A stretch of DNA of 64,000 nt from Anaerolineae bacterium (GTDB lineage: Bacteria; Chloroflexota; Anaerolineae; JAAEKA01), in the NCBI GenBank assembly GCA_049299095.1, contig JBAQWV010000143.1, positions 25,000 through 88,999 on the forward strand, given 5' to 3'. Of the stretch, positions 1,353 through 52,861 are shown one piece after another (positions within the stretch are counted from its first letter, which is position 1; the number at the start of each line of letters is the position of its first letter). Position numbers and translations under genes: made by a program. Below the pieces are notes generated by a model. It did no database searches. It saw only the letters and a program-made list of their open reading frames with translations, and was not told the origin of the DNA.

Positions 1353-3140
1353 ATGAATGATCTGAACGCTACGCCTCTTAGTACAGATGCAGAATTCGAT
1401 GCGTTGCCCAGCGCCAGCCAGGCGCGCGGCCTTGACCCCGACACAGCCCGCTATCCCCTGGGCATGGTCGTGGCCGGTTCACTCTCCAAAGGGCTGGATG
1501 TGCGCCTCGCCCGCGAGATCAACACCGAAGATCAGGCTGTGGGCAGCTACGTGGTGGTGCGCGGCGCGGGCAAGCGCTTTTTCAGCATGATTACCGATGT
1601 GCTGCTGGGTGCGGCCAGTGACGAGGTCACGCTAAACCCGCCTGACCTGTCCGATCCCTTCCTACGCGAGATTCACCAGGGTACCAGCACTTTTGGCCTG
1701 CTGCACCTTAGCCCCATGCTGACGCTGGATGCCGAGGCGGGGGGCGAGCCGCAGCCGGTGAAGACCGTGCCGGGGCACTTCAGCCCGGTGCGCGCGGCCA
1801 GTCAAGCGGAGGTAAGCGAGGTATTCGGCGAGGAAGGCCACGACGCGGCGCGCAAAACCCACTTCTTTCATGTGGGCAATCCGCTGGACATGGCTGATGT
1901 CAAGGTGACGCTCAGCCTGGAGCGGCTGGTGGAGCGCTCATCCGGCGTGTTTGGCAAAAGCGGAACCGGCAAGACCTTCCTGAGCCGCCTGCTGCTGGCC
2001 GGCATTATTCGCGAGCGCGTGGCCGTGAACCTGATCTTTGACATGCACAATGAATATGGCTGGGAGGGTAGCAGCGAAGGCGTCACCAGCAAGGTGAAGG
2101 GGTTGAAGCAGATTTTCCCCGACGGCCGCGTCAGCATCTTCACGCTGGACGACGAATCGAGCCGACGCCGCGGCTCTAATCCCGACTATACCGTCACCAT
2201 CGGTCTCGATCAGGTGGAGCCGGACGATGTGGAGATGTTGCAGGGCATCCTCAACCTGAGCGAGCCGCAGTTGGGCGCGATCTTCGCCCTGCACCGCTAT
2301 CTGCGCCGCGACTGGCTGGCGAACTTCCTCGACGACACCTGGTTGGACAACCAGCAAGCCTTCGATCCTGACACCGGCAAAGAAAAATCGGGCTTGCAGG
2401 TGCTGGCCGAGGAGACGGGCCAGCCCTTCCAGACGCTGGCCGCGCTGCGCCGCCGGCTGCTGCAATTTGAGCGCTACGGCTTCCTCAAGCCGCACGCCGT
2501 GGACGATTCGGTGGAGCGCCTGCTGCGCTATCTGGACGCGGGCACCAACGTAGTGCTGGAGTTTGGCCGCTACGGCAACAGCCTGGACGCCTATATTTTT
2601 GTGGCGAATTTCCTTACGCGGCGGCTGCATCAAAAGTACGTAGAGAAGAAGGAGAACGCCTTCGGCAACAAGGCCGAGGAGCCTAAGCCGCTGGTGATTA
2701 CCATCGAGGAGGCGCACAAGTTCCTGGACCCGGCGATTGCCGGCCACACGATCTTCGGCACAATTGCGCGCGAGCTGCGCAAGTACAACGTCACGCTATT
2801 CATCGTGGATCAACGCCCCAGCCAGATTGACCCTGAGGTGATGAGCCAGATCGGCACGCGCGTCACTGCGCTGCTGGACGAGGAGAACGACATCCGCGCG
2901 GTGCTGATGGGGGTGAGCGGAGCAGCCGGGCTGAAGGAGGTGCTGGCGCGGCTGGACACGCGGCAACAGGCGTTGATCCTGGGCCACGCCGTGCCGATGC
3001 CCGTGGTGGTGCAGACGCGTTCCTACGATCTGACCTTCTACAAGGCGATGGGCCATGTGGACGATGCCGAGTTGCCCGCGCGGCTGGCTGAAAACGTCAT
3101 GAAGATGCGTGGCGAGGAAGGCTTCGAGGGCTTCGATTAA
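1353..3140 (+). CDS. HerA/FtsK-class (DUF87-type) P-loop ATPase with N-terminal HAS-barrel
   Basis: Walker A FGKSGTGKTFLSRLL. HerA-type EEAH-containing Walker B region PLVITIEEAHKFL. Arg-finger/sensor block RKYNVTLFIVDQRPSQIDPEV typical of HerA/VirB4/FtsK. N-terminal barrel-like region. GGAG RBS 8 nt upstream of ATG 1353. TAA stop at 3138-3140. Confidence 0.65.
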   Translation: MNDLNATPLSTDAEFDALPSASQARGLDPDTARYPLGMVVAGSLSKGLDVRLAREINTEDQAVGSYVVVRGAGKRFFSMITDVLLGAASDEVTLNPPDLSDPFLREIHQGTSTFGLLHLSPMLTLDAEAGGEPQPVKTVPGHFSPVRAASQAEVSEVFGEEGHDAARKTHFFHVGNPLDMADVKVTLSLERLVERSSGVFGKSGTGKTFLSRLLLAGIIRERVAVNLIFDMHNEYGWEGSSEGVTSKVKGLKQIFPDGRVSIFTLDDESSRRRGSNPDYTVTIGLDQVEPDDVEMLQGILNLSEPQLGAIFALHRYLRRDWLANFLDDTWLDNQQAFDPDTGKEKSGLQVLAEETGQPFQTLAALRRRLLQFERYGFLKPHAVDDSVERLLRYLDAGTNVVLEFGRYGNSLDAYIFVANFLTRRLHQKYVEKKENAFGNKAEEPKPLVITIEEAHKFLDPAIAGHTIFGTIARELRKYNVTLFIVDQRPSQIDPEVMSQIGTRVTALLDEENDIRAVLMGVSGAAGLKEVLARLDTRQQALILGHAVPMPVVVQTRSYDLTFYKAMGHVDDAELPARLAENVMKMRGEEGFEGFD

Positions 3141-3282
3141 ACCAGTTTGGGGGTATTTGAAAAGCCATAATCAGTGGTTCGACAGCGTACAGCGCCACCG
3201 ATGGTAGCTTGCACGCTGCGGGCTGTCAAGTCGCGCAGGCTGTGAACATTTGTCCGCGCTGCGGCGTGCAATGCAATGAACC

Positions 3283-3314
3283 TGCCCGCGCGGGCAAATG
3301 TCGTTTTGTTTTGC
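3283..3314 (+). terminator. Putative intrinsic terminator after the HerA-like cassette
   Basis: GC palindrome tgcccgcgcgggca followed by the T-rich tract aatgtcgttttgttttg. Confidence 0.35.
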
Positions 3315-3340
3315 TGGATATTCAAGCCTATGGGTGTCCT

Positions 3341-5272
3341 ATGACCACTGATCATAACAAACGTTTATTGTATCTGTTCCTCGCCATCGCTCTGGTCGCA
3401 CTGACGGCGCTGACCGGCTGGGCTGGCTATAGGTTGTTCAGCCGTGCGCTGGGACCGGCCGTCACCACCACCCCATCCCCTGCGGTGGTGACGGTGATCG
3501 TGGTCGCCACCCCCACCCAGCCGATCCCCTCTCCCACGCCGACACCCCTCTCGACCGTCACCACCATTGCCACCATGCCAACGGTCGCAACCGTGACGGC
3601 GTCCACACCGACTGCCGCGTTGAGCGTGATCGTCACGGCCGATCTGGCGAATCTGCGCAGCGCACCGGACATTGGTGCGCCAGTGCTGGGGGCCGCGCCC
3701 AAAGGCACACTCTTGCAGCCGCAAGGCCGTACGGCTGACAACCAATGGCTGCAGGTGTGCTGTGTCTCCAATCAGTGGGGCTGGATCACCAACCATTCCG
3801 ACCTGGTAACGTTGAATTTCCAGCCCGGCCTGCTGCCGGTGGTGCAATTCCCCACACCCGCGCCACAGCCACAGCCGACCCATACGCCCCCGCCTACGTG
3901 GACGCCCGCGCCACAGCCGACCCGCACGCCCTTGCCTACGTGGACGCCCGCGCCGCAGCCGACCCGCACGCCCCTGCCCACGTGGACGCCCGTGCCGCCC
4001 GCGGCCACAGCCACTTCCACACCGCCCACCGACTTCTGGCGAGGCGAGTACTTCAACAACCTCACGCTGCAAGGTCCACCGGTGTTGACACGACACGACG
4101 CGGCCCTCACTTTTAGCTGGGGAACAGGCAGCCCCGCGCCCGGCGTGGTCTCCGCGGATAACTTCAGCGCGCGCTGGACGCGCTGGCTGGTCATGCCGCG
4201 CAGCGATACCGTGCGCTTCGCAGTACGCGTAGACGATGGCGTGCGCATCAAGCTGGATGGCGCGCTGATCCTCGATGCCTGGCGCGACAGCGCACAGGCT
4301 GAATACGCGGTGGAACGACCAGTGTCAGCCGGCTCGCATCTCGTGGAGGTAGAGTATTACGAGCGCAACGGGCAGGCCGAGATCAATTTCGGCTGGATGC
4401 CGGTCGCGCCATCCCCAACAGCCAGCAGCACCCCCACGACGACCGCGACCGCTACGCGCACGCCAACGTCCTCCCCCACCGGCACACGCACGCCAACGGC
4501 GACGCCGACGACCACAGTCACCGGCAGCCCCACGTCAACAGCGACGCCGACGCCGACCGTGACGACAATGCCTACTATCGTTGTGCCGCCGTCGGAACCA
4601 ACCGCCACGCCCACCGCCACCAACACGCCAGCCACCACGGCTACGAGCACATCAACGGCTACCACTGCTGCCACAGCCACGAGTACGTCAACACCGACGT
4701 TTACGGCTACCAGCACAGCGACTGCCACAGCGACGGCCACGCGCACACCAACGCCCACACCGCTCACTGCGACCCCGACGGCCACATCCGCGCCGCCCAC
4801 CGCCACGCCCTCTGCCACCAGTGAACCGGCAGCGACGCCCACACCCACGATCACACCATTGCCACCCACCCCGACCGCCACGGCGACGCCTGCGTTGCAG
4901 CCGTCGTTGGTGATCTCACCGACCACCGGCTGGGCGGGCACAGTGGTGCAGGTGACGGGCGCCAACTGGCTGCCGAATGACCGGGTGACACTCACAGTCA
5001 CACAGCCGCGCAGCCGCGGGCTGGAGTTTGCGCGCGCGCGCCTCCGCGTGCGTACCGACCGACAGGGCCGCTTCACCGCCACCCTGACCATGCCGCCGCA
5101 AGTGGCGCAGCCCGGTGCCACCGCAGTATGGATCGTCGGCACGGGCAGCCGCAGCACGCGCGCCACCGCAGTCTTTACGTTGACGCCGCCCTCGGATGCA
5201 ACGCCGGTCGGCGCGCCGACGGTGATCACCCCGGCCACGGACAGCACACCACCGCCGGACAGCAACCCATAG
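3341..5272 (+). CDS. Secreted or membrane-anchored protein with SH3b-like and PA14 domains and long Pro/Thr-rich linkers
   Basis: Start trimmed to the in-frame ATG at 3341 (MTTDHNKRLLYLFLAIALVALTAL, signal/TM). SH3b-like segment LANLRSAPDIGAPVLGAAPKGTLLQP. PA14-like block FWRGEYFNNLTLQGPP...DDGVRIKLDG...VEVEYYERNGQAEINFGW. Extensive T/P/A-rich low-complexity regions. Confidence 0.55.
   Translation: MTTDHNKRLLYLFLAIALVALTALTGWAGYRLFSRALGPAVTTTPSPAVVTVIVVATPTQPIPSPTPTPLSTVTTIATMPTVATVTASTPTAALSVIVTADLANLRSAPDIGAPVLGAAPKGTLLQPQGRTADNQWLQVCCVSNQWGWITNHSDLVTLNFQPGLLPVVQFPTPAPQPQPTHTPPPTWTPAPQPTRTPLPTWTPAPQPTRTPLPTWTPVPPAATATSTPPTDFWRGEYFNNLTLQGPPVLTRHDAALTFSWGTGSPAPGVVSADNFSARWTRWLVMPRSDTVRFAVRVDDGVRIKLDGALILDAWRDSAQAEYAVERPVSAGSHLVEVEYYERNGQAEINFGWMPVAPSPTASSTPTTTATATRTPTSSPTGTRTPTATPTTTVTGSPTSTATPTPTVTTMPTIVVPPSEPTATPTATNTPATTATSTSTATTAATATSTSTPTFTATSTATATATATRTPTPTPLTATPTATSAPPTATPSATSEPAATPTPTITPLPPTPTATATPALQPSLVISPTTGWAGTVVQVTGANWLPNDRVTLTVTQPRSRGLEFARARLRVRTDRQGRFTATLTMPPQVAQPGATAVWIVGTGSRSTRATAVFTLTPPSDATPVGAPTVITPATDSTPPPDSNP
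3869..3994 (+). repeat. Three tandem copies of a 42-nt coding repeat (PQPT-TPLPTWTPA) inside the PA14 protein gene
   Basis: Near-identical 42-nt units ccacagccgacccgcacgcccttgcctacgtggacgcccgcg at 3869-3910, 3911-3952 and 3953-3994. Confidence 0.8.
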
Positions 5273-5381: not shown

Positions 5382-6260
5382 ATGACTTATCTTGCTGTTG
5401 CTTTAGCTGCGCAAACCACCGCGGCCGCGCAGGCTGCGCTCCGGCAGATCGCAGGCCGCGCGGATCTGGCTGAACTGCGTCTGGACTTGATGCACGAATT
5501 TGATCTGCCTGCCTTGCTGGCCGCGCGGCCCCTGCCGGTGATCGTAACCTGTCGCCCGCCGCGCGAAGGGGGGCGCTGGCAAGGCAACGAAGCCGCTCGG
5601 CTGGCGGTGCTGCAACAGGCTGCCGCACTGGGCGCTGAATATGTGGACGTAGAGTGGGATGCCGCGGCGATGCTGCCTAACCTGGATCGCACGCACACGC
5701 GCGTGATCCTGTCGCGTCATCATTTCAACACGATGCCCGTGGATTTGGCACAGCAAGCTGCGGCGCTCGCGCAGGCGGGCGCGGATGTGGTGAAGGTGGT
5801 GGGGATGGCGCACAGCCTGACCGACTGCGCACGGGCTTTGCGGGTGCTGGACGAAGCCCCCCTACCCACAATTGCAATCGCGATGGGGGTGTACGGTCTG
5901 CCCAGCCGCGTGCTGGCCTTCCGCTCTCCGCGCGCGCTGCTAAGTTTTGCCACGCCGGACGCTGCTGCGGGCACTGCGCCCGGCCAGCTCACGCTAACGA
6001 CGATGCTGGAGGACTTGCGCGTGCGCGCGCTGACGCCACAAACTACGGTTATCGGTTGGGCTGATGGCGACGTACGCGCCTGCGGGGCGGCAAATGCGCG
6101 GCTGGCCGCGCAGGGGCTGGACGCGGTGACGATTCCGCTGCTGTCTGTGGGGGATACAGACCGCGCACAGGCCGCGGCTAGCTTGCGGCTGGCATTCGTC
6201 CTGCCTGCGGGTGAAGCAGGTGCGGTGGCGCTGGCGCGCTGGGCTGCAACACAAGCGTAG
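5382..6260 (+). CDS. aroD: 3-dehydroquinate dehydratase type I-like (AroD family)
   Basis: N-terminal AELRLDL...PVIVTCRP..EGG and SRHHFNTMP (S-x-H-x-F, as in E. coli VSNHDF) resemble type I DHQase. Carries a C-terminal extension. Confidence 0.55.
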   Translation: MTYLAVALAAQTTAAAQAALRQIAGRADLAELRLDLMHEFDLPALLAARPLPVIVTCRPPREGGRWQGNEAARLAVLQQAAALGAEYVDVEWDAAAMLPNLDRTHTRVILSRHHFNTMPVDLAQQAAALAQAGADVVKVVGMAHSLTDCARALRVLDEAPLPTIAIAMGVYGLPSRVLAFRSPRALLSFATPDAAAGTAPGQLTLTTMLEDLRVRALTPQTTVIGWADGDVRACGAANARLAAQGLDAVTIPLLSVGDTDRAQAAASLRLAFVLPAGEAGAVALARWAATQA

Positions 6261-6299
6261 GGTTGTCATTATCTCCTCATCCGAAACACGGCGATGAGG

Positions 6300-6509
6300 A
6301 CCGTCTTCACGAAAAATTCAGAAATTATTCAGGAAAAATTCAAGACTCGCGCGGGGAGCATATGGTAAGATAGTGCAGTAGTGAGATAATGCAGTTGTGT
6401 AACTGTACAATGCGTGCTCTCACTTCCTCTTTTTGTATACTTATGACCTTGTGTACCTGCCTTCGGCATACCAATCTCCCAATCTACCCGCCTCTGGAGC
6501 ACTTATCCG
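6300..6509 (+). promoter_or_regulatory. AT-richer upstream region of the WXG100-toxin gene with direct repeats and candidate promoter elements
   Basis: Direct repeats gaaaaattcag / ggaaaaattcaag. Repeated gata(a)tgcagt motifs and tgtaactgtacaatg. Local GC drop relative to flanks. Confidence 0.3.
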
Positions 6510-7634
6510 ATGAGCAATGACATCATTCAGGCGCAATACGACACGCTAAACGCAGTGGCGCGGCGCTTCGGCGACCAGGCGGAGGCGAGCAGCCAGATGC
6601 TGGCTGGGGTGCGTCGCGCCATGCAGCCACTGCAAGCCGGTGCGTGGCAGGGTCGCGGCTCCACAGCGTTTTTCAACGAAATGACTGGTGAGTTGTTGCC
6701 CGCGTTGAATCGCCTCGTAGCCGCGCTGCAACAGGCACAAACCGTTACTACTGATATTGCCCGTCTCGTGCGCGCAGCCGAGGAAGAGGCTGCACAGCCC
6801 TTCCGGGGTGGCGAGAACGCAGGCAGCGATGCCGGAACCGCAGCAGGCGCTGACACGGCGCCGATACAAACGCTGCTGCCAACACCGCTGCCGACCAACC
6901 AGATCTTTGCCGATTCCTACATGGATGGTCTGGTGGGTTTGCAAGTACAGGGAGCCAACACCGCCCAACTGAACAGCGCGATGGAGACGCTGGCTGGCAC
7001 CCCCACGCCCGAGCAGGTAAACCAGGCGCTGGATCAGATCGCCCAGGCGCGCGGCGTGCCGCGTGCCGAGATCGAGGCGCAATACCAGCGTTACCTAGCC
7101 CTGCGCGACGAAGCTGCGCGCATCGCCGCGGCCAAGGGCATGGATCAGGTTCCCGCGGCCAGCCAGTTCCTGCACGATGACTTCATGGGCAGTACCACAC
7201 AACTGCGCTACGGCAAGGTCGTGGGCGACGCGCTGGGCATTGACCCGGTGTTCGGTGCGCTACTCAACCCCACTGGCGGGCTGGTCGGCCCCGGCAACGC
7301 GGCCGTTGACCTGGGCGATAGCGCACTGGGTTATCACGGCGTGGTGCATGACGCCGCCGGCTACCTCTACAACTACCACAACATGGGACCAGGCTATGAC
7401 TATCTGGGCCTGGAAGGGCGCGATACCAGCAGTCCATTGACCGGCCAGCAGGCTGGCATCCAGTATTGGACAAACAACATCAACGCGGGCTTTGTGGAAT
7501 CAACCCTGTCGAATACCGGCGGCACGTTGCTCGGTGTAGCGGAAGATGTAAAAACCGGCGTCACCCAAACAATAGACGCTATCAGTGATGGCGTTGAGAG
7601 CGTCCGTGACTGGTTTGGCGATTTATTTGACTGA
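6510..7634 (+). CDS. WXG100/LXG-like N-terminal domain fused to a C-terminal domain of unknown function (polymorphic toxin-like)
   Basis: First ~100 aa is a helical WXG100-type domain with W-x-G (LQAGAWQGRGSTAFFNEM). Followed by an A/G/T/P-rich linker and a ~250-aa C-terminal domain with no recognisable motif. ATG 6510, TGA 7632-7634. Confidence 0.55.
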   Translation: MSNDIIQAQYDTLNAVARRFGDQAEASSQMLAGVRRAMQPLQAGAWQGRGSTAFFNEMTGELLPALNRLVAALQQAQTVTTDIARLVRAAEEEAAQPFRGGENAGSDAGTAAGADTAPIQTLLPTPLPTNQIFADSYMDGLVGLQVQGANTAQLNSAMETLAGTPTPEQVNQALDQIAQARGVPRAEIEAQYQRYLALRDEAARIAAAKGMDQVPAASQFLHDDFMGSTTQLRYGKVVGDALGIDPVFGALLNPTGGLVGPGNAAVDLGDSALGYHGVVHDAAGYLYNYHNMGPGYDYLGLEGRDTSSPLTGQQAGIQYWTNNINAGFVESTLSNTGGTLLGVAEDVKTGVTQTIDAISDGVESVRDWFGDLFD

Positions 7635-7644
7635 GAGGTGTTGC

Positions 7645-8409
7645 ATGACGATTCCCTGTGCCATTTCATACCCTGTCACCCTCTCACCGGCACAACTGGC
7701 TTACCTGCTTTCGCTCACTGGTATTCAAGATTTGGTGGGCCTGGCCGATGAAGGCCTCTTTCCCAGAAACGGCGACCATTGGGAACGGCTTTTTCTGCAC
7801 GGCCGCGCCGAATTGGAGCGTGACCAGTGGTTGTATCAACCGCCCAACAGTGCCCGCACAGCCATCAATCAGGAGTTGCTGACAGTAGTGACCACGATGG
7901 CTGCGCCGGACGCAGTGCTGGTGACCACACTCAACCGTCCTGGCCTGCCCAGCCAAAGCGTCACCCATTATATTTCAACCTTTGTCGTGGAAGCGTGCTA
8001 CGATGGCCTGTACTACCGGATGGCTGCCTTGTCATCACCGGAAGTAATGCTGATGCGGCTGGCAAGCACCTTGGGTCTGCCCTCACAGCAGCCCGCGCTG
8101 GACGAATTCGTGCTGTCCAATGAGAGTGCGCGGCAGGCTGTGGCCGATCCGGCGCCGGAACACCTGGCCCGGCTGGGCGTGCCCAGCAGCAGTATACAGC
8201 TTTTCGCCCGCGCCCTCGATGCGGGTCGGCGTGCCAAGGTGCAGGTGATGCGACTGCGTTACGGCCAGGTGCAGGCAGTTCACCGCGTGCGCGCCCTGTT
8301 CGCCAGTGAATCCTCGGCCTGGCTGGCTTTGCCTGCTGATGGCGCGCGCGTACGCATGGTGCCCGCGTACGCGGGCGGTCTGGCCGAACAGGTGCAAGCC
8401 TTGCTATAA
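7645..8409 (+). CDS. Hypothetical protein immediately downstream of the WXG-toxin gene (candidate immunity protein)
   Basis: In-frame ATG at 7645, 10 nt after the toxin stop (ORF track start 7585 overlaps the upstream gene). No recognisable motif. Position matches the toxin-immunity pair convention. Confidence 0.4.
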   Translation: MTIPCAISYPVTLSPAQLAYLLSLTGIQDLVGLADEGLFPRNGDHWERLFLHGRAELERDQWLYQPPNSARTAINQELLTVVTTMAAPDAVLVTTLNRPGLPSQSVTHYISTFVVEACYDGLYYRMAALSSPEVMLMRLASTLGLPSQQPALDEFVLSNESARQAVADPAPEHLARLGVPSSSIQLFARALDAGRRAKVQVMRLRYGQVQAVHRVRALFASESSAWLALPADGARVRMVPAYAGGLAEQVQALL

Positions 8410-8425
8410 TAGGGGAGAACTACTT

Positions 8426-8863
8426 GTGAATAAACAGTTCCGTCATCGCTTTCTGTCTGGTACAACGTTTCCCATAGTTCTGGTCTTCGTCCTCGCCGTT
8501 TTTGTGCTCACCTCTTGCAATGCCATGAACGCCAACCGCTTACATATTCGCATCCAAAATACCAGCTCCTCTGACATCAGCGACTTTTGGCTGGGTGCAG
8601 GCTCCGGTGCAGGCGGGCCAGGCAGCCGTTCGTTCGGGGCCATTGCCAGCGGCGCAACTACGCCCTATCGCGCGCTAAAAGCCGAATTCGGCTTGTACAG
8701 CAACTATAATTTCCTGACCACAGAGGGCCAGCGCTTCATCGGCACAACCTTCCCCAACGAGCTGTTCGGCAAGGTTGAGCTGGAGCCAGGCTATTACACC
8801 TTTGTCGTTTCCACCAGCGGAGACGCCACCAGCCTTGAGATTGTGACCGATCCAGCGCCTTAA
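8426..8863 (+). CDS. Small lipoprotein, hypothetical
   Basis: GTG at 8426 preceded by AGGGGAG RBS. Signal peptide with lipobox-like VLTSC. Remainder beta-rich, Ser/Thr-rich. Confidence 0.45.
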   Translation: MNKQFRHRFLSGTTFPIVLVFVLAVFVLTSCNAMNANRLHIRIQNTSSSDISDFWLGAGSGAGGPGSRSFGAIASGATTPYRALKAEFGLYSNYNFLTTEGQRFIGTTFPNELFGKVELEPGYYTFVVSTSGDATSLEIVTDPAP

Positions 8864-8887
8864 TCGCTGACTTGCGGTCAGCAATGG

Positions 8888-8992
8888 GGCTATTCCCTGC
8901 TTGCCAGCTAATCGGTGATGTGTACAATGAAAGCAGCCAGCCAGGCGGGCTGGCTGTAGTGCCAACACATGCTGAAAAGCAGGGAATAGTCC
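8888..8992 (+). promoter_or_regulatory. Structured 5' leader whose outer stem pairs the RBS of the VWA-FHA gene
   Basis: Outer 15-nt arms ggctattccctgctt (8888-8902) and aagcagggaatagtc (8977-8991) with 14/15 complementarity. They enclose a perfect 9-bp hairpin gcagccagcc/ggctggctg (8933-8956). The 3' arm contains the AGGGA Shine-Dalgarno 3 nt before ATG 8994. Confidence 0.4.
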
Positions 8993-8993
8993 A

Positions 8994-11135
8994 ATGACTA
9001 AGAGGATATTAGCCGGTTTGGGCGCGCTGTTTGTGCTGTTCTTTGTGGCCGCGTTCGCGGTTTCCGCACAAGCGCCTGTTTCTCCGCAAGTAATTAGCAC
9101 CGTTGCGCATCCGGGGGCCGAAGGGCTGGGGTTGGATGTTTATTTTGTCGTGACAGACGGCGATGGGCAACCAGTACTGGATGCCAACCTGGAAGAAGCC
9201 ACGATCCAGGTCGTCGGCAGCGCCAGCGCGCCGATTCCGGCCACCATTAGCACCCCACAAAGCACCATCTATGTCGTCCTGCTGCTCGACGTCAGCGGCA
9301 GTATGCAGAATATTATCGGTCAGGTGCGCGCGGCCGCGCTGTCTGCACTACAAACATTACCCGCCAATGCCCGCGTGTCGGTCATCGCCTTTAGCGACCA
9401 AATCAGTGTCGTCACCGACTTTACCGGGGACTTTATCACCGTACAACAGCGAATTCAGCAGATCGGCGTTGCTCCTGGCGCGCCGACCTGCCTGTACGAT
9501 GCCGTGTGGGACGTAATTGATCGTCTGGACATTGCCGCAACGGAGCCACAAGACCGCCGCGCGCTGATCCTTTTCACCGATGGCCGCGACGAAAAGGGCA
9601 ACGGGCAAGCATGCAGTATTCACACGTTGCAAGATGTCGTTCAAAAGGCACAACGCCAGCCCGCCACACCCATTCATACCATCGGCTTGTGCGGTGCGAC
9701 ATGCGCCAACCTGAACGTCACAGAATTGAGCGAAATCGCCAGCGCCACGCGCGGTTTTGCTGTAACTGGTGGGCAGACTGACCTGGAAGATATGTTCCAG
9801 GCGATCATGGACGGACTGAACGCCCAACTGGTCGCGCGGGCCGTGGTGTATCCCCGGCAGGGTACGGGGCAGGCTGTGCTGGCCGTACGGCCACACGATC
9901 TGAATGCCTTTGTGACCACGATGTTCAACTTTCGTTCTGACAAGGATTATGCCGAGCCACTGCCGCCGGTGGCTGTGCGCGTGACAGAACTGACCTTCCT
10001 GCCTGACAACAATACCTATCAGGTGGGTCTGGGCATCGGCAATCCGCAATCAGCAGACCGTCTGATCGTGAGTATTGAGGAAACCGAAGGCGGCAAGACG
10101 GTACTCAAGGGTTTGGAGATCAACGTCGAAGGCCGCGCTGCACTGCAAACAGACTTGCCCGCGGCCAACCTGACCGCGGGCCGTAAATACACCATCAAAT
10201 TTCAGGCCGTGGATGTCGCAAACAACTTCCTTACACTTCCTGAAGGCGCCGACGCCTGTTCCGATGACCCGACCGTCCTCGGCTGTAAAGAGTTCACACA
10301 CGAGCCGCCCGTTGCCCCCGGCTGCGAATTCGCGGTTCAGTCCGTTGCTTCGGACTACACCAATCAAGTACTGCGCTTCGATTTGGTGATGCCCAAACAG
10401 TGCAACGATGTGTTCTATCAGGGGGTGATCGTCCAAAAGGACACCGGCCAAAAGGTGCAGGACATCGGCCGCGGCACTTTCTTTGCTGCACAGGGCACCA
10501 ACCAGATCAATATTCCCATGCCTGTGCGGCTGTTACAACTGAAGAAAAAAGACCCTGTGCCGGAATTGGCGATGACCCTCACGCTGGAAACGCGCGAGAG
10601 TAAGCAAACCACGTTGGCCTATGAGTTCGTGCCCGATCGCCGCCCCCCCGTGCCTTTGACGGAATTTTTGCGACGCAATATCATGTTTTTGGTCGGTGGC
10701 CTGGCTATTGTAGTGTTGTACTTTCTATATCACACTTGGCAGTCACAACAGGCAGAAAAGCAGAAACGCGAGCAGGTGCGCCCGCCCATCGAATCCACCA
10801 CCAAGCCTGTTAATTTTGAAACGCCAGCCATGCGCTTGAAGCTACACATTCTATCCACCCCTGATCCCCAAAACCGGCGCGATCTGGTTGTAAGCCAATT
10901 CCCCTTCGTAATTGGCCGCAAGGAAGGCAACCTTATTATCCGGGATCAGAAAGTGTCTGGCAAGCACGCTCAAATCACCATCAACGGCAATGAATTCTTT
11001 ATTGAAGACCTGGGCAGCACCAACCACACCTACCTCGCGGGCAAGCCCCTGGTGCCGCACAGCCCACAGCGCCTGCCCAGCAAGCTGAAAGTGCGCCTCG
11101 GCCCCGACACCGAAATCGAAATCGAAACCATCTAA
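8994..11135 (+). CDS. Membrane protein with extracytoplasmic VWA domain and cytoplasmic C-terminal FHA domain
   Basis: Signal peptide [48 protein letters not shown] ... [13 protein letters not shown]. Single [20 protein letters not shown]-terminal FHA signature [49 protein letters not shown]. Confidence 0.7.
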
Positions 11136-25229: not shown

Positions 25230-27860
25230 TCAGCCTGGCCTGGCCTCATCGCCCGGCAGTTCCGGCGCATCTTCCGGGTCGCTGGGATCGTCGCCCGGCA
25301 ATTCCGGTTCGCTGTCCGGGTTTTCCGGCCTGTCCCCCGGCAAAATCGGCTCTTCCGGCGCGGGCGCTTCCTCGTCGCGGTCATTCTCGGCCCGGCTGGC
25401 GCTGCTTTCCTTGCTTGTTGCAGTCTTGCCGAAGTTGCGCAGGCGCAAAGCCAGGCGGGTGAGGGCATCGTCCACGCGACGGTTGAGGCTGCCGTCAGGA
25501 TAATGCCCCTCCGCGTCACGCTCGCCCGCGGGCACGCCGGTCAGCACGGTGATGCCTTCATCCACGGTGGTGACGGGGTAAATGTGGAACTGGCCTGCGG
25601 CGACCGCATTGATCACATCCTCGCGCAGCATCAGCGTCGGCACGTTGGCCGCGGGCAAGAGCACGCCCTGCTCGCCGGTCAGTCCTTTGGCCGCGCAAAC
25701 ATCGAAAAAGCCCTCGATTTTGGCTGTGGCCCCGCCGATGGCCTGGATTTCGCCGTGCTGATTGACGGAACCAGTGACCGCGATGCCCTGGCGGATGGGG
25801 GCTTGCGCCAGCGCGGAGAGAAGCGCGTACAGCTCGCTGCTGCTGGCGCTGTCGCCGTCCACACCGTCATAGCTTTGCTCGAAGGTGAGGGTGGCGGTCA
25901 GGCTGAGCGGTTTGTTTTGCGCGTAACGCCCGCCGAGAAAGCCGGTCAGGATCAACATGCCCTTGTCGTGGGTCTTGCCGCTGAGCTTGGCCTCGCGCTC
26001 GACGTTGACGACGCCCGACTGGCCAAGGTAGACTTTGGCGGTGATGCGGGTGGGCTTGCCGAACATGGTGTCGCCCAACGACAGCACTGCCAGGCCGTTG
26101 ACCTGACCGATGCGCTGGCCGGTGACGTCAATCATTACGAGGTTGTTGACGATGGACTCGCGCACGCGCTCTTCGACGAGGCCAGAACGGTAGCGGCGCT
26201 CGTTGATGGCGCGCTGCACATCGTTGCCGGTGACCATCCGCGGGGTCGCGTCGGCATTGCCGCGGCTGGCGTTGGCCCAGTAGGCAGCTTCGCGGATAAT
26301 GTCGGCCACGTCGGCAAAGCGAGTGGTCAGTTTGTTTTGATCTTCCACCAGCCGCCCGCTGTATTCGACGATCTTGGCGACGCCGCCAGGGTCAAACGGG
26401 GGCAGGGCTTCTTCGGTGCAGCGGGTGTGAATGAAGCGGGCGATCTTGAGGACGTTGTCATCGGTCCAGTTCATCTGGCCAGTAAAGTCGGCGCGTACCT
26501 TGAACAGCTTTTGGAACTCTTCGTCGTAGGCGTAGAGCCAGTAATAGGTATAAGGGTCACCGATCAGGATCACCTTGACGTTGAGCGGGATGGCTTCGGG
26601 GTCGAGGCTGGCGGTGGCGATCATGCTGTATTGTGCGCTTAGCTCTTCGATGTGGACTTGCTGATGCCGCAGTGCGCGCTTGAGTGCGTCGAAGGAAAGT
26701 TGTTGGCGCACGATGGCGCGGGCGTCCACGACGAGATAGCCGCCGTTGGCTTGCAGCAGCGAACCGGCTTTGATCAGGCTGTAGTCGGAGACAACTGTGC
26801 CGAACTGCGCTTCCTGCTCGACGCGGCCAATCAGGTTGTAGTAAGTAGGGTTGGTTTCGACGACGACCGGCGCGCCGGTTTCGTTGCTGTGATCCACCAC
26901 GACGTTGATGCGGTAATGCTCGAACAGCGATTCGGGTGGGCCGAGCAGCAGCGCGGGCGACATGCTGGCTTTGTCTTCTTCGTCGCCCGGTGCATCCACG
27001 CCGAGCTTGTAGCGATCTACGTGCTCGGCGATGTGGGTCTGCACTTGCTGCAAGTATTCGACCACTTCGTCCCAAGCCGCGTAGTCGGTGAGTAGGGGGG
27101 TGAAGAGCGGCTGGATGGCGGCTGTGGCAAGCTCGCGGTCAAGGTTTTGCAGGCGTACGTTGGTTTCGTCTTGCAGGGTGCGCAATGAACGCAAGGAGCG
27201 TTCCAGTTCGTCGCTCAACTCTGGTTCGCGGGCTTCCAGCACCTGCTGTTCGGCCACCGGCAACTGGTTGAATTGTTCCTGGGTCGCGGCTTTGCCATCA
27301 ATCAACGGCGCAAAAAGCAAGCCGGTTGCTGTTTGTACCAACGCGAAGCCCCGCTCCAGGGCAAAGGCGTTGATATGGTCGTTGATTTCCTGCCGGCGCT
27401 GTTCGATTTCTTTCACGACCGCTTTGCGGTGTTCATCGTATGCTTCGCTCTCAAAGCTGCGCGGCAGCAGTTCTTCCAGTGTAATCAGCACAGCATCCAG
27501 CTTGTCACGCAACATGCGGCCACCGCCCGGGGGTAACCGCAGCGCCTGTGGGCTGTCAGGCTGTTGGAAGTTATTGACGTAGCCCCAGTCGTTGGGAACC
27601 GGGCGGGTAGCGGCTTTGCGTTGCAGGTATTTGGCGATGGTAGTGGTTTTGCCTGCGCCACCCGGCCCAAGCGCAAAGATATTGTAGCCGTAGGAGGGCA
27701 TGTCCAGGCCAAATTCAATGGCGCGGGTGGCGCGCTCTTGACCGATGATTTCGTTCAGTTGCTCCAGCTCGTCGGTAGACTGGAAAGGCAGTTGTGCGGG
27801 GTTGCAGACGTGACGCAGTTGATCTGCTGTCAGCTCGCGCGGGGGAATGGTACTGGGCAT
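25230..27860 (-). CDS. Lon-like ATP-dependent protease (AAA+ N-terminal, S16 Lon_C protease domain; lon-related family) with acidic PELPGD-repeat tail
   Basis: Walker A GPGGAGKTT. Lon_C Ser-Lys region GDSASSSELYALLSALAQAPIRQGIAVTGSVNQHGEIQAIGGATAKIEG. No Lon N-terminal (LAN) domain. C-terminus PILPGDRPENPDSEPELPGDDPSDPEDAPELPGDEARPG. TGA stop at 25232-25230. Confidence 0.7.
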   Translation of the reverse strand: MPSTIPPRELTADQLRHVCNPAQLPFQSTDELEQLNEIIGQERATRAIEFGLDMPSYGYNIFALGPGGAGKTTTIAKYLQRKAATRPVPNDWGYVNNFQQPDSPQALRLPPGGGRMLRDKLDAVLITLEELLPRSFESEAYDEHRKAVVKEIEQRRQEINDHINAFALERGFALVQTATGLLFAPLIDGKAATQEQFNQLPVAEQQVLEAREPELSDELERSLRSLRTLQDETNVRLQNLDRELATAAIQPLFTPLLTDYAAWDEVVEYLQQVQTHIAEHVDRYKLGVDAPGDEEDKASMSPALLLGPPESLFEHYRINVVVDHSNETGAPVVVETNPTYYNLIGRVEQEAQFGTVVSDYSLIKAGSLLQANGGYLVVDARAIVRQQLSFDALKRALRHQQVHIEELSAQYSMIATASLDPEAIPLNVKVILIGDPYTYYWLYAYDEEFQKLFKVRADFTGQMNWTDDNVLKIARFIHTRCTEEALPPFDPGGVAKIVEYSGRLVEDQNKLTTRFADVADIIREAAYWANASRGNADATPRMVTGNDVQRAINERRYRSGLVEERVRESIVNNLVMIDVTGQRIGQVNGLAVLSLGDTMFGKPTRITAKVYLGQSGVVNVEREAKLSGKTHDKGMLILTGFLGGRYAQNKPLSLTATLTFEQSYDGVDGDSASSSELYALLSALAQAPIRQGIAVTGSVNQHGEIQAIGGATAKIEGFFDVCAAKGLTGEQGVLLPAANVPTLMLREDVINAVAAGQFHIYPVTTVDEGITVLTGVPAGERDAEGHYPDGSLNRRVDDALTRLALRLRNFGKTATSKESSASRAENDRDEEAPAPEEPILPGDRPENPDSEPELPGDDPSDPEDAPELPGDEARPG

Positions 27861-51088: not shown

Positions 51089-52861
51089 CTATCCAGCCTG
51101 TAAGCGGTTGATCTCCACCTGCAAGATGCGTCGCAGGATCGCGATGCTGGTGGCGTAGGTCGGGTCTACCCCGAAATAACTCAGACTCTTGGCCAGCAGG
51201 CTTTGCCGCCGACTGTACGGCGTGTCCGACGTATAATGCAGCAAGCCGATATCGTAGGGCGCATTGATGAACAGATTAACAATCTCGTTCGTTGGATACC
51301 GCTGCGGATAAATGTCTTCGTAGATGGCGCTCAGGTACGGCCCGGCTTCCATCTCAATGTCCGTGTAGCCTTCACGGTAAAAGACAGCCATAAACTGGCG
51401 GTTCTGCAGGAATGTACCGCGCACCGTCACACCCTTTTGATTGTCGAATACCGTGCTGTGCAGCAGGTAGGGCCGTACATCCCCCGCCTTGAAGCAATTC
51501 TTAAAGAGGAAAGTGTTCTTCGAGTGCTCGTCGTACACTACGTTCGGGATCATCACATCACCCACGCGGCCATTCAGCGACGCGGCTTTCCCCATGATGT
51601 AGATACCCTGAATATCCGGCACTTCCGCGGCCATCTGCGAAAACACCAGATACGCCGCCATGCCCAGCGGATAATCAATGTTGATAATCAGCGCACGGCT
51701 TTGCTGAAGCATGTCCAGCCCCGGCATATGCAGCCGTGGGTCCATCCGGCTCGGCTTGAGCTGCGCCAGATCAATCACCTGGCTGCTGACATCGAGGTAA
51801 TGCGGGTTGTCCACGCGGTGAATCCCCAGCGAGCGTTCCAGGTCGAAATACTGCTCATAGCGCTGCGGATCGGCAGCCAGAAAAGAGCGCTGCATGTAGT
51901 ACAGCAGGTTTTCCTGCCCCGCCTGGCTCCCTTCACTCACCAAATGCTGCCATTCTTCCCACAAGCCTTCGGGGTTATGCTCCTGCAAATGCGCCAGGAT
52001 TTCTCCCTTGTGCTGCCGCGCATAGCCGTTCAACAGATTAGGCAGCGCGTGTGGGTTGCTGGACACAAAGTACACCGGGCGCGTATCCAGCGCATCCACA
52101 TCGCTCAGGTTCAGCACACTGTGCCACCACGACTGCACCGCCTGGCGATAATCCGACACCGAGCCAGCCAGCAAGTTCAGCCGCATGTCAGCCGGTTCCG
52201 AAGCCATGCTGCGCAACGCCGCAAAGAAATCCTTGCCCCACACGCGTTGCAGCAAGCGAAAATCATCTTCGCTCAGTCCCAATGTAGCGCGCACTTTGCT
52301 CAGCTTGCTGTCACTGATCGGCTTTTTGCCCGTCTGCCGCACCAGCCACTCGCCGATTTCAGTCTCGTGCAGGCGTTGGTGCAGCTTGTTCCATTCAATC
52401 TGATACGCGGTCAGAATCGGGATCAGGTCATCAATATCGCTAACGCTGGAGATGTACGCAGCCAGCACGCCATCCTGCGTATTGAAAAACATCTTGCGTC
52501 GCCGCGCCACCGCGAACACGCGCTGCCAGTCGCTCACCTTCACACCCGCGCGGCGCTGGAACACCTCATCCGACTGCGCCAGCAGCACCCGCTTCACCTG
52601 ATAAATGCAGGAGGGCAGGCGCATCGCTGCATACACCAGCGCCGGAATATCCGGCTCCGGGCTATCCGCCTTCGGGTGCAGGCTGGCGCGCATCCCCGCG
52701 TGGGTTTCTTCCAATGAACGCACACGCACCGATTCGCTGCTGCGCAGCAGCGAATAATAGGTACGAATGTACAGGTCTACTTCTTCGTTGATAGTTTCGG
52801 GTACGGTTCTTAACATAGTAGGTAGATTGGTGGGTGGGGAAATTGGTGCGCCCTTACACAC
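51089..52861 (-). CDS. Phosphorylase-superfamily (PNP/MTAN/AMP-nucleosidase-like) C-terminal domain protein with long N-terminal region of unknown function
   Basis: C-terminal region LIINIDYPLGMAAYLVFSQMA...IYIMGKAASLNGRVGDVMIPNVVYD...TDIEMEAGPYL resembles the PNP_UDP_1 fold (compare AMP nucleosidase AIDMESATIA). The first ~330 aa are unassigned. Start may be an internal Met. Confidence 0.4.
   Translation of the reverse strand: MCKGAPISPPTNLPTMLRTVPETINEEVDLYIRTYYSLLRSSESVRVRSLEETHAGMRASLHPKADSPEPDIPALVYAAMRLPSCIYQVKRVLLAQSDEVFQRRAGVKVSDWQRVFAVARRRKMFFNTQDGVLAAYISSVSDIDDLIPILTAYQIEWNKLHQRLHETEIGEWLVRQTGKKPISDSKLSKVRATLGLSEDDFRLLQRVWGKDFFAALRSMASEPADMRLNLLAGSVSDYRQAVQSWWHSVLNLSDVDALDTRPVYFVSSNPHALPNLLNGYARQHKGEILAHLQEHNPEGLWEEWQHLVSEGSQAGQENLLYYMQRSFLAADPQRYEQYFDLERSLGIHRVDNPHYLDVSSQVIDLAQLKPSRMDPRLHMPGLDMLQQSRALIINIDYPLGMAAYLVFSQMAAEVPDIQGIYIMGKAASLNGRVGDVMIPNVVYDEHSKNTFLFKNCFKAGDVRPYLLHSTVFDNQKGVTVRGTFLQNRQFMAVFYREGYTDIEMEAGPYLSAIYEDIYPQRYPTNEIVNLFINAPYDIGLLHYTSDTPYSRRQSLLAKSLSYFGVDPTYATSIAILRRILQVEINRLQAG

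Follow-up and report, generated by a model that had tools for sequence, protein, structure and literature searches.

Which function is served by the gene at positions 6510..7634 of the analyzed Anaerolineae DNA, whose product joins a WXG100 module to a large C-terminal domain, and by the genes packed directly behind it? The DNA (herein referred to as the window) comprises 64,000 nucleotides (nt) of contig JBAQWV010000143.1 from an Anaerolineae bacterium of the phylum Chloroflexota. A preliminary description had proposed here a polymorphic-toxin-type, WXG100-tagged effector, followed by a candidate immunity gene and a small lipoprotein gene. By open reading frame (ORF) calling, all three genes were confirmed as annotated, closely packed on the + strand: g1 (6510..7634, 374 amino acids (aa), with GGAG 10 nt 5' of the ATG), g2 (7645..8409, 254 aa, with its ATG 10 nt past the g1 stop, the spacing given previously), and g3 (8426..8863, 145 aa, with a GTG start and GGGGAG 8 nt upstream). 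The region 6510..8863 is probably an effector cassette of a Chloroflexota type VII-like secretion system, i.e., a system of WXG100 proteins and an FtsK/SpoIIIE ATPase. In this cassette, g1 would be the effector, g2 its partner with an EspG fold, and g3 a lipoprotein forming the third gene.

The copy in the window is an ordinary, typical member of a large conserved family. A protein identical to g1 (P0001), named 'WXG100 family type VII secretion target', originates from a metagenome-assembled genome of an Anaerolineae bacterium. To our knowledge, the family of g1 has never been studied experimentally, and type VII-like secretion in Chloroflexota is known from genome surveys only, with no substrate, chaperone, or immunity protein studied there.

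WXG100 module and TOX domain of g1

The N-terminal helical hairpin of g1 (aa 1-100, 6510..6809, + strand) matches the Pfam family PF06013 at aa 6-91 (38.4 bits; cut-off 27.3) and the NCBIfam family TIGR03930 at aa 6-96 (63.7 bits; cut-off 44.85). The best match among PDB sequences, a weak one, is EsxA (3zbh). The W-x-G motif reported earlier corresponds to W46-Q-G48; neither W46 nor G48 varies among 70 homologues. The domain had been described as WXG100/LXG-type; the WXG100 half of that assignment is upheld by both profiles, and the LXG half is not, the LXG model (PF04740) giving no match to g1 at E≤1 in the Pfam scan. On these profile matches, the domain is assigned to WXG100 and not to LXG. 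It is not a free-standing protein of about 100 aa but the N-terminal module of a 374-aa fusion, in which it would serve for export or targeting. A Gly/Ala-rich linker (aa 101-120, 6810..6869, + strand) follows, the length of which is highly variable in the alignment of homologues.

The C-terminal domain of g1, aa 121-374 (about 250 aa), is herein referred to as TOX. It had been considered to lack a recognizable family, and nothing was matched in Pfam, NCBIfam, or PDB, either by sequence or by fold, housekeeping enzymes included. Three parts can be distinguished in it, all on the + strand. The helical N-subdomain (aa 121-210, 6870..7139) is modeled with a predicted local distance difference test (pLDDT) of 88-98 in the AlphaFold2 (AF2) model m22771769075a and falls inside the TOX match of the PAAR and other fusions described below. 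The conserved core (aa 221-327, 7170..7490) is defined by residues invariant in the alignment, which include R233, D245, P254, G256, G257, H276, H280, D281, Y298, E302, and W320. The amphipathic tail (aa 328-374, 7491..7631) is of low confidence (pLDDT 35-54).

H276 (codon 7335-7337) and H280-D281 (codons 7347-7352) share one helix of the core, and both histidines are kept in 65 of 68 TOX ORFs. As modeled, TOX is an all-alpha domain with an invariant H-x3-H-D helix. This pattern suggests an enzyme, possibly a metal-dependent one, and TOX may thus represent an enzymatic toxin. Several more specific assignments were considered and set aside. The glycine loops together with the HD dyad had raised the idea of a phospholipase A2 (parvoviral/group XIV type), which was rejected: TOX does not show the phospholipase A2 fold, in which a Ca-loop GxG precedes the catalytic HD. 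Interpreting H-x3-H-D as a zincin, HD-domain, or HNH motif was also considered; these candidates gained no fold or profile support and are not claimed. The family PF26363 ('Phospholipase-like'), annotated on a 4,210-aa TOX protein (P0337), was not used as a name for TOX, as none of about 120 g1 homologues carries it in the same precomputed annotation; on P0337, the neighboring lipase region is its most likely source.

TOX closes with a series of amphipathic helices that is variable. Its terminal aromatic motif is RDWFGDLFD in the window and SDAWNWLRD or AWDxIW elsewhere, and it is common to WXG100, PAAR, and other TOX carriers (window, L013, L018, L024, L027, L030, L059). Because PAAR and other fusions also end in this motif, its interpretation as an export signal of type VII secretion systems (T7SS) was rejected, and the tail is assigned to TOX itself. 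It may be a membrane-interaction or translocation element.

One subfamily carries N and S in place of H276 and H280. Its members (L053:7230-9215, L055:3-746, and L058:8738-10573) come from related Anaerolineales loci, keep the WXG100 module, have very long Gly-rich linkers, and are not accompanied by g2. This subfamily may hold an inactivated or repurposed toxin domain. In L053 and L058, a gene for a protein with VWA and FHA domains directly follows the histidine-less WXG100-TOX gene.

Conservation and distribution of TOX

In total, 458 matches were found for g1. The best 120 of these are mostly full-length WXG100-TOX proteins, 42-80% identical, and belong to Anaerolineae, Caldilineales, Ardenticatenaceae, and Herpetosiphon, all members of Chloroflexota. 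At this locus, TOX is conserved across the phylum and not variable among orthologues. The C-terminal diversity that the preliminary description had proposed to look for is accordingly absent from the orthologues themselves; it is found in sister genes and in the variety of TOX carriers.

Related loci hold 2-4 WXG100 fusions, with N-termini 50-58% identical to that of g1 and unrelated C-termini. These sister fusions are 296-592 aa long, and the C-terminus of one of them matches the Pfam families ART and ADPrib_exo_Tox. The ART fusion is encoded at L005:5919-7151 (precomputed matches PF01129 and PF03496), and a protein encoded at L002:6751-7980 is 64% identical to it. An EspG-family gene directly follows the fusion in L005; in L002, a gene for a 159-aa protein lies between the fusion and an EspG-like gene.

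An exhaustive profile search with TOX yielded 579 representative clusters, 258 of them at E≤1e-30. The hosts belong to Chloroflexota, Myxococcota, Planctomycetota, Verrucomicrobia, Actinobacteria, Alphaproteobacteria, and Betaproteobacteria. PAAR-TOX fusions (Pfam PAAR, E 1e-22 to 1e-25) were found in Polyangium, Chondromyces, and one planctomycete. Other carriers are eCIS_core proteins, one RTX protein, and one dockerin/cadherin protein. One TOX protein bears an added C-terminal endonuclease, and in the 4,210-aa multi-effector P0337, TOX is found alongside VgrG3-C, lipase, and calpain domains. Thus, a single C-terminal domain occurs on WXG100, PAAR, eCIS_core, RTX, and dockerin/cadherin carriers, and a single type of WXG100 module occurs on differing C-termini. 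Both are traits of polymorphic toxins, and g1 can be regarded, as was first proposed, as a probable polymorphic-toxin-type effector. The presence of TOX on many carriers and in many phyla is what characterizes a mobile module of effectors or toxins.

It is also conceivable that g1 is no antibacterial toxin but a conserved secreted enzyme or surface factor (e.g., one involved in envelope remodeling or in filament/sheath biology), with g2 as its chaperone and g3 and the downstream gene g4 as envelope partners. The full-length architecture, which the phylum conserves in one or two copies at each locus and in which the C-termini of orthologues do not vary, would suit such a protein, as would the steady association with the VWA-FHA membrane protein and the lack of a toxin family match for TOX. 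This explanation is nevertheless held to be very improbable, in view of the fusion of TOX to PAAR, eCIS_core, and RTX modules, its position beside lipase, calpain, VgrG3-C, and nuclease domains in multi-effectors, the ART toxin domain carried by sister genes of the same clusters, and the dedicated cognate partner gene, which is the rule.

The EspG-fold protein g2

The g2 gene encodes a cytoplasmic protein of 254 aa without a signal peptide. The protein itself has no match in Pfam, NCBIfam, or PDB sequences, and a direct sequence search found six relatives only. These are 56-60% identical to g2 where the corresponding g1 proteins are 78-79% identical, so g2 evolves fast; it also diverges faster than TOX (27-55% versus 55-80% identity). 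A profile built with the syntenic genes of related loci recovered 83 relatives. The AF2 model of g2, computed from 65 sequences, has a pLDDT of 89 and a predicted template modeling score (pTM) of 0.81. In a Foldseek search of this model against PDB, the top 18 matches were all EspG1, EspG3, or EspG5 (E 8e-13 to 2e-9, template modeling (TM) score 0.58-0.71, about 265 aligned columns); the next-best matches were to PCNA (E>5e-3, TM score 0.15). In one scan, 2 of 13 members of the g2 family matched the EspG family PF14011. The family members P0186 (33.4 bits) and L005:7267-8061 (27.8 bits) exceed its cut-off of 27 bits, and the window g2 itself did not match. Judged by its model, g2 is folded like EspG, the T7SS chaperone of mycobacteria, and the earlier view of g2 as a protein without recognizable features can no longer be held. 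A precomputed match to a further Pfam family, PF27351.1, is present on the g2-family proteins P0148, P0162, P0164, P0185, and P0204.

The g2 model superposes over its full length on EspG3 and EspG5 (PF14011), and like the mycobacterial proteins EspG1/3/5, g2 is cytoplasmic and encoded together with T7SS substrates. It differs from them in several respects. Identity to the mycobacterial proteins is only 13-22%, no PE/PPE genes were seen, and the partner is a WXG100-TOX fusion. Mycobacteria have one EspG per secretion system, whereas the g2 family has one paralogue per effector, and g2 homologues also occur beside PAAR-TOX and other non-T7SS effectors in Gram-negative phyla. No paper linking EspG with Chloroflexi was found in the literature.

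The association of g2 with TOX was examined in a locus survey, which covered the ORFs of the first 22 kb of the window and of 63 further loci. The queries were hidden Markov models for TOX, g2, g3, and the WXG module, together with a Chloroflexi EssC-like protein. For the 64 TOX genes that had 900 nt or more of sequence on their downstream side, a g2-family gene was sought within 2.5 kb downstream. Such a gene was found in 54 of the 64 loci, in nearly all of them starting about -200 to +120 nt from the stop of TOX; it lies farther away in L025 (492 nt, after g3) and in L047 (1,711 nt). It follows TOX in 40 of 42 loci where the module on TOX is WXG100, in 7 of 7 where it is PAAR, and in 7 of 13 with another module. 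According to hhalign, the partners from Planctomycetota, Alphaproteobacteria, and Verrucomicrobia are homologous to g2 over the full length (Prob 98.6, E 5e-16). The PAAR-linked partners are shorter (196-211 aa) and are probable g2 homologues (Prob 85.5), with only the N-terminal half aligning confidently. In Polyangium, Chondromyces, and the planctomycete, the g2-like gene following PAAR-TOX occupies the canonical position of an immunity gene, as in PAAR-toxin/immunity pairs of the type VI secretion system (T6SS), from which the window cassette differs in its use of WXG100. No conserved gene besides the g2-like one was found by tblastx after PAAR-TOX, and a conserved third gene at these loci was therefore rejected.

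Since g2 is linked to TOX across carriers and is absent from the three loci where H276 and H280 are changed to N and S, it appears to be tied to the toxin domain and not to the WXG100 module. This is what one expects of an immunity or neutralizing protein, and we infer that TOX has in g2 its cognate binding partner in the cytoplasm. The preliminary description had assigned immunity to g2 by adjacency. With an EspG fold, adjacency alone is not a safe basis for this role; the linkage to TOX outside T7SS keeps the role alive.

In its strict form, that earlier proposal makes g2 a classical specific immunity protein without any role in export and the lipoprotein an unrelated neighbor. The position of g2 directly downstream with a 10-nt spacer agrees with it, as do the g2-TOX linkage across delivery systems, the fast evolution of g2, and its loss along with the catalytic histidines. 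The fold of g2, however, is that of a secretion chaperone family, g2 paralogues pair with unrelated toxin domains, and the synteny of g3 extends to all closer relatives and to both tandem cassettes of Herpetosiphon, so this gene is not incidental. We consider this proposal improbable.

A second explanation follows the yfj operon of Bacillus subtilis, in which the gene order is toxin (YfjB), EspG-like protein (YfjC), and membrane antitoxin (YfjD) (bioRxiv 10.1101/2023.08.02.551746; PMC10765036). Under it, g2 would be purely an EspG-type export chaperone or adaptor binding the helical part of g1, g3 would be the true immunity protein, and TOX would attack the envelope from outside. The EspG fold of g2 speaks for this arrangement, together with the family members passing the Pfam EspG threshold and the g2-family paralogues that follow every WXG100 fusion, the ART toxin included. 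In the known systems, YfjC, encoded right after YfjB, is required for attack and YfjD is the antitoxin (bioRxiv 10.1101/2023.08.02.551746), and EsaE is an EspG-like chaperone of EsaD in Staphylococcus aureus (PMC10765036, PMC12478183). The extracytoplasmic g3 is conserved and, in two actinobacterial loci without g2, directly follows TOX.

Other observations fit this explanation poorly. The g3 gene was found in only 17 of the 64 loci, compared to 54 for g2, and the PAAR-TOX loci of Myxococcota and Planctomycetota have a g2-like gene only and would be left without immunity. We know of no T6SS effector that needs EspG. In Alphaproteobacteria, Planctomycetota, and Verrucomicrobia, g2 is linked to TOX without WXG100 on the effector and without an EssC-like ORF detected within 10 kb, and the histidine-less TOX variants keep WXG100 yet are without g2. 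A full analogy to the yfj operon is therefore regarded as rather unlikely, and about the same weight is given to g2 being a pure chaperone. We lean slightly towards a protein that binds and neutralizes TOX in the cytoplasm of the producer, possibly also chaperoning it.

The lipoprotein g3

The N-terminus of g3, MNKQFRHRFLSGTTFPIVLVFVLAVFVLTSC, comprises a signal peptide and a lipobox L-T-S-C, which was read by eye and fits [LVI][ASTVI][GAS]C. The homologues have L-A-G-C or L-T-S-C at this site (SLAGC, VLTSC), and in two Acidimicrobiia-type loci g3 is anchored by a transmembrane (TM) segment. The small lipoprotein of the preliminary description is thus recovered, with the addition that it is a conserved cassette member in closer relatives. 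The g3 gene follows g2 in 13 WXG loci and one truncated Chloroflexi locus and directly follows TOX, without g2, in two actinobacterial loci and one further locus. It is syntenic in the closer Chloroflexi relatives and in both tandem cassettes of Herpetosiphon. By this distribution and its predicted lipidation, g3 appears to be a real but lineage-restricted member of the cassette, placed on the outer face of the membrane. Lipoprotein immunities exist for envelope-acting toxins, and by analogy to these or to YfjD, g3 could be an extracytoplasmic immunity factor.

Tandem TOX-g2-g3 cassettes are found in Herpetosiphon at L017:6573-12127 (Herpetosiphon llansteffanensis), where the two g3 copies are 95% identical, and also at L012 and L001. 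All three genes have diverged between the tandem cassettes of L012 (28% identity for g2 and 35% for g3).

Secretion context and g4

No gene for EssC or another FtsK/SpoIIIE ATPase was found in the 64-kb window, either by Pfam scans of the large ORFs or by phmmer searches of all ORFs with a Chloroflexi EssC-like protein, in agreement with the previous reading. The window also contains no second WXG100, TOX, or g2 gene. The suggestion that the secretion genes lie elsewhere is borne out by relatives, in which an FtsK_SpoIIIE ATPase of 3,024 aa (L002) or 2,903 aa (L006) is encoded a few kb from the orthologous cassette. EssC-like ORFs are located within 10 kb of the cassette in 13 loci (L002:1-447, L006:1-6863, and 11 further ones), and an FHA protein and other WXG100 fusions are also found near the orthologous cassette. 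The ATPases of the relatives carry several FtsK_SpoIIIE domains; EssC or EccC is about half their size. In the window, the cassette and g4 are placed after aroD, and the same arrangement is present on an independent contig (L004). With this layout, the window cassette is detached: it lies away from the ATPase cluster and has gained a leader of its own with repeats.

A HerA/DUF87-type ATPase of the FtsK-HerA superfamily, with a weak HAS-barrel match, is encoded at 1353-3140, preceded by two unannotated ORFs (60-716 and 725-1327). As a stand-in for EssC, this ATPase (1353..3140) was rejected: it does not match the Chloroflexi EssC-like protein, unrelated genes lie between it and the cassette, and it is absent from related loci.

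The gene downstream of the cassette, g4 (8994..11135, + strand, 713 aa; Pfam VWA_2, VWA, FHA), encodes a membrane protein in which a signal peptide and a VWA domain are followed by a TM segment and, in the cytoplasm, a C-terminal FHA domain. In at least 17 Chloroflexi loci, a g4 homologue adjoins the TOX cassette, on its downstream side in the closest relatives and on its upstream side elsewhere, and g4 belongs to the same conserved neighborhood. In some relatives, genes for a PP2C phosphatase and a Ser/Thr kinase come after the VWA-FHA gene. This combination hints at a phospho-threonine regulatory module like that of T6SS.

Leader region, operon structure, and other genes

A leader of 250 nt separates g1 from the type I dehydroquinase gene (aroD, 5382..6260). 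The drop in GC content described for this region was observed, with values of 0.50-0.52 at 6151-6600 versus about 0.65-0.68 on both flanks. The repeats described there are real, in a slightly different form: a repeat search of the AT-richer leader found three direct repeats TTCAsrAAAwATTCA with 11-nt phasing (6306..6342, no strand) and two tandem 16-nt repeats GTrAGATArTGCAGT (6365..6396, no strand). The repeats at 6306..6342 are candidate operator or activator sites. The region upstream of the L007 orthologue is unrelated and does not conserve the repeats, which therefore seem specific to the detached copy in the window. An RNA element in the leader was rejected, as no Rfam family matched it at E≤1, and a scan of the leader found no sigma-70 consensus site.

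A hairpin, GCTGAC-TTGCG-GTCAGC, was read from the sequence directly past the g3 stop (8866..8882, + strand). It lacks a T-run, and the terminator scan did not report it; it may mark the operon end. The promoter scan found a sigma-70-like site, TTGCCA-16-TACAAT, 5' of g4 (8901..8928, + strand). This site is the sole one in the region, and shuffled sequences average 1.3 sites, hence it is weak evidence. Because of their tight packing, the hairpin after g3, and the sigma-70-like site before g4, g1, g2, and g3 look like one operon.

Three other genes of the window were characterized. Positions 3209-5272 encode a protein of 687 aa, in which SH3_3 and PA14 domains are combined with long low-complexity runs rich in Thr and Pro; it gives rise to a strong GC and AT skew and to long spurious ORFs on the opposite strand. 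A LonC/LonB-like protease (25230-27860) and a full-length DUF6909 protein (51089-52861, 727 bits) are unrelated to the cassette.

Proposed function of the cassette

In the proposed mechanism, g1 would be a secreted effector, exported through its WXG100 hairpin, a module shared with the sister effectors, and TOX would be its enzymatic toxin part. The g2 protein would bind and neutralize TOX in the cytoplasm of the producer and might keep the toxin export-competent, as EspG, EsaE, and YfjC do. The lipoprotein g3 would act as a lineage-restricted second protective factor against incoming toxin at the outer face of the membrane, and g4 would be a conserved membrane component or a regulator of the same system.

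Among known systems, the cassette is most like the yfj operon, with which it shares the order of toxin, EspG-fold protein, and membrane-anchored small protein, as well as a WXG100 export module. WXG100 is fused to the toxin in g1 but encoded by a separate gene (yfjA) in B. subtilis. TOX is all-alpha and soluble, with His, His, and Asp as invariant residues, whereas YfjB is a glycine-zipper membrane protein; g3 is a lipoprotein without sequence kinship to YfjD, and the g2 family extends to T6SS (PAAR) contexts, where it also accompanies TOX.

A broader similarity exists to the LXG/WXG100 toxins of type VIIb secretion systems (T7SSb), such as EsaD of S. aureus, TelA-C of Streptococcus intermedius, and the LXG proteins of B. 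subtilis. In both groups, an N-terminal helical Esx-like export domain is joined to a toxin domain at the C-terminus, the genes of the cognate partners come directly downstream, and several effectors cluster by an EssC-type ATPase, in our case in relatives. The differences are the PF06013 WXG100 N-terminus of g1, the Chloroflexota host, the ATPase of about 2,900-3,000 aa in relatives, and the toxin domain without a name; no small helical partners of the Lap/DUF3130 type were seen beside g1. A smaller number of WXG100 sequences in Chloroflexota has been noted in a review (PMC10765036).

Several observations weigh against the proposed function. EssC is absent from the 64-kb window. TOX is conserved and not variable at the locus, and a conserved physiological exoprotein would also fit this pattern. 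In some giant proteins, TOX is internal and not C-terminal, and these are not followed by g2 or g3; no homologues of either gene were found beside the eCIS- or VgrG-linked giant TOX proteins. In the Chloroflexi clusters, homologous paralogues with the EspG fold come after each WXG100 fusion, irrespective of the C-terminal domain, and thus point to a chaperone role. Two actinobacterial loci have g3 but lack g2. Three closely related loci underlie the link between losing the histidines and losing g2, and they probably reflect one evolutionary event. Finally, the TOX domains of the two cassettes of H. llansteffanensis are 57% identical, compared to 96% for the g2 copies, which argues against tight toxin-specific co-diversification. 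The near-identity of these copies suggests that, in one Herpetosiphon species, the partner genes recently underwent gene conversion.

A wider interpretation can be put forward tentatively, with less confidence than the cassette itself. The EspG-fold proteins may form a broader family of toxin-domain-specific partners, immunity or neutralizing in function, that pass between secretion systems in a two-gene cassette together with their toxin, mycobacterial EspG being one specialized branch and TOX a new enzymatic toxin fold built around the H-x3-H-D helix. The routes would then be WXG100/T7SS in Chloroflexota, PAAR/T6SS in Myxococcota and Planctomycetota, and further routes in Alphaproteobacteria and Verrucomicrobia.

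For the Chloroflexota, the cassette would provide a defined and very widespread substrate family of type VII-like secretion. TOX is a toxin-type domain without a name, common to effectors of T7SS, T6SS, and extracellular contractile injection systems (eCIS) across at least seven phyla. Its pairing with g2 both in and out of T7SS contexts constitutes a natural experiment on the function of the EspG fold. The same genes are carried by culturable relatives such as Herpetosiphon aurantiacus DSM 785, with the locus at 4,102,784-4,124,154 of CP000875.1, and Polyangium spp., so these questions are directly testable. The interest of the locus would rise further if EspG-fold proteins are indeed toxin-linked immunity proteins that move between secretion systems.

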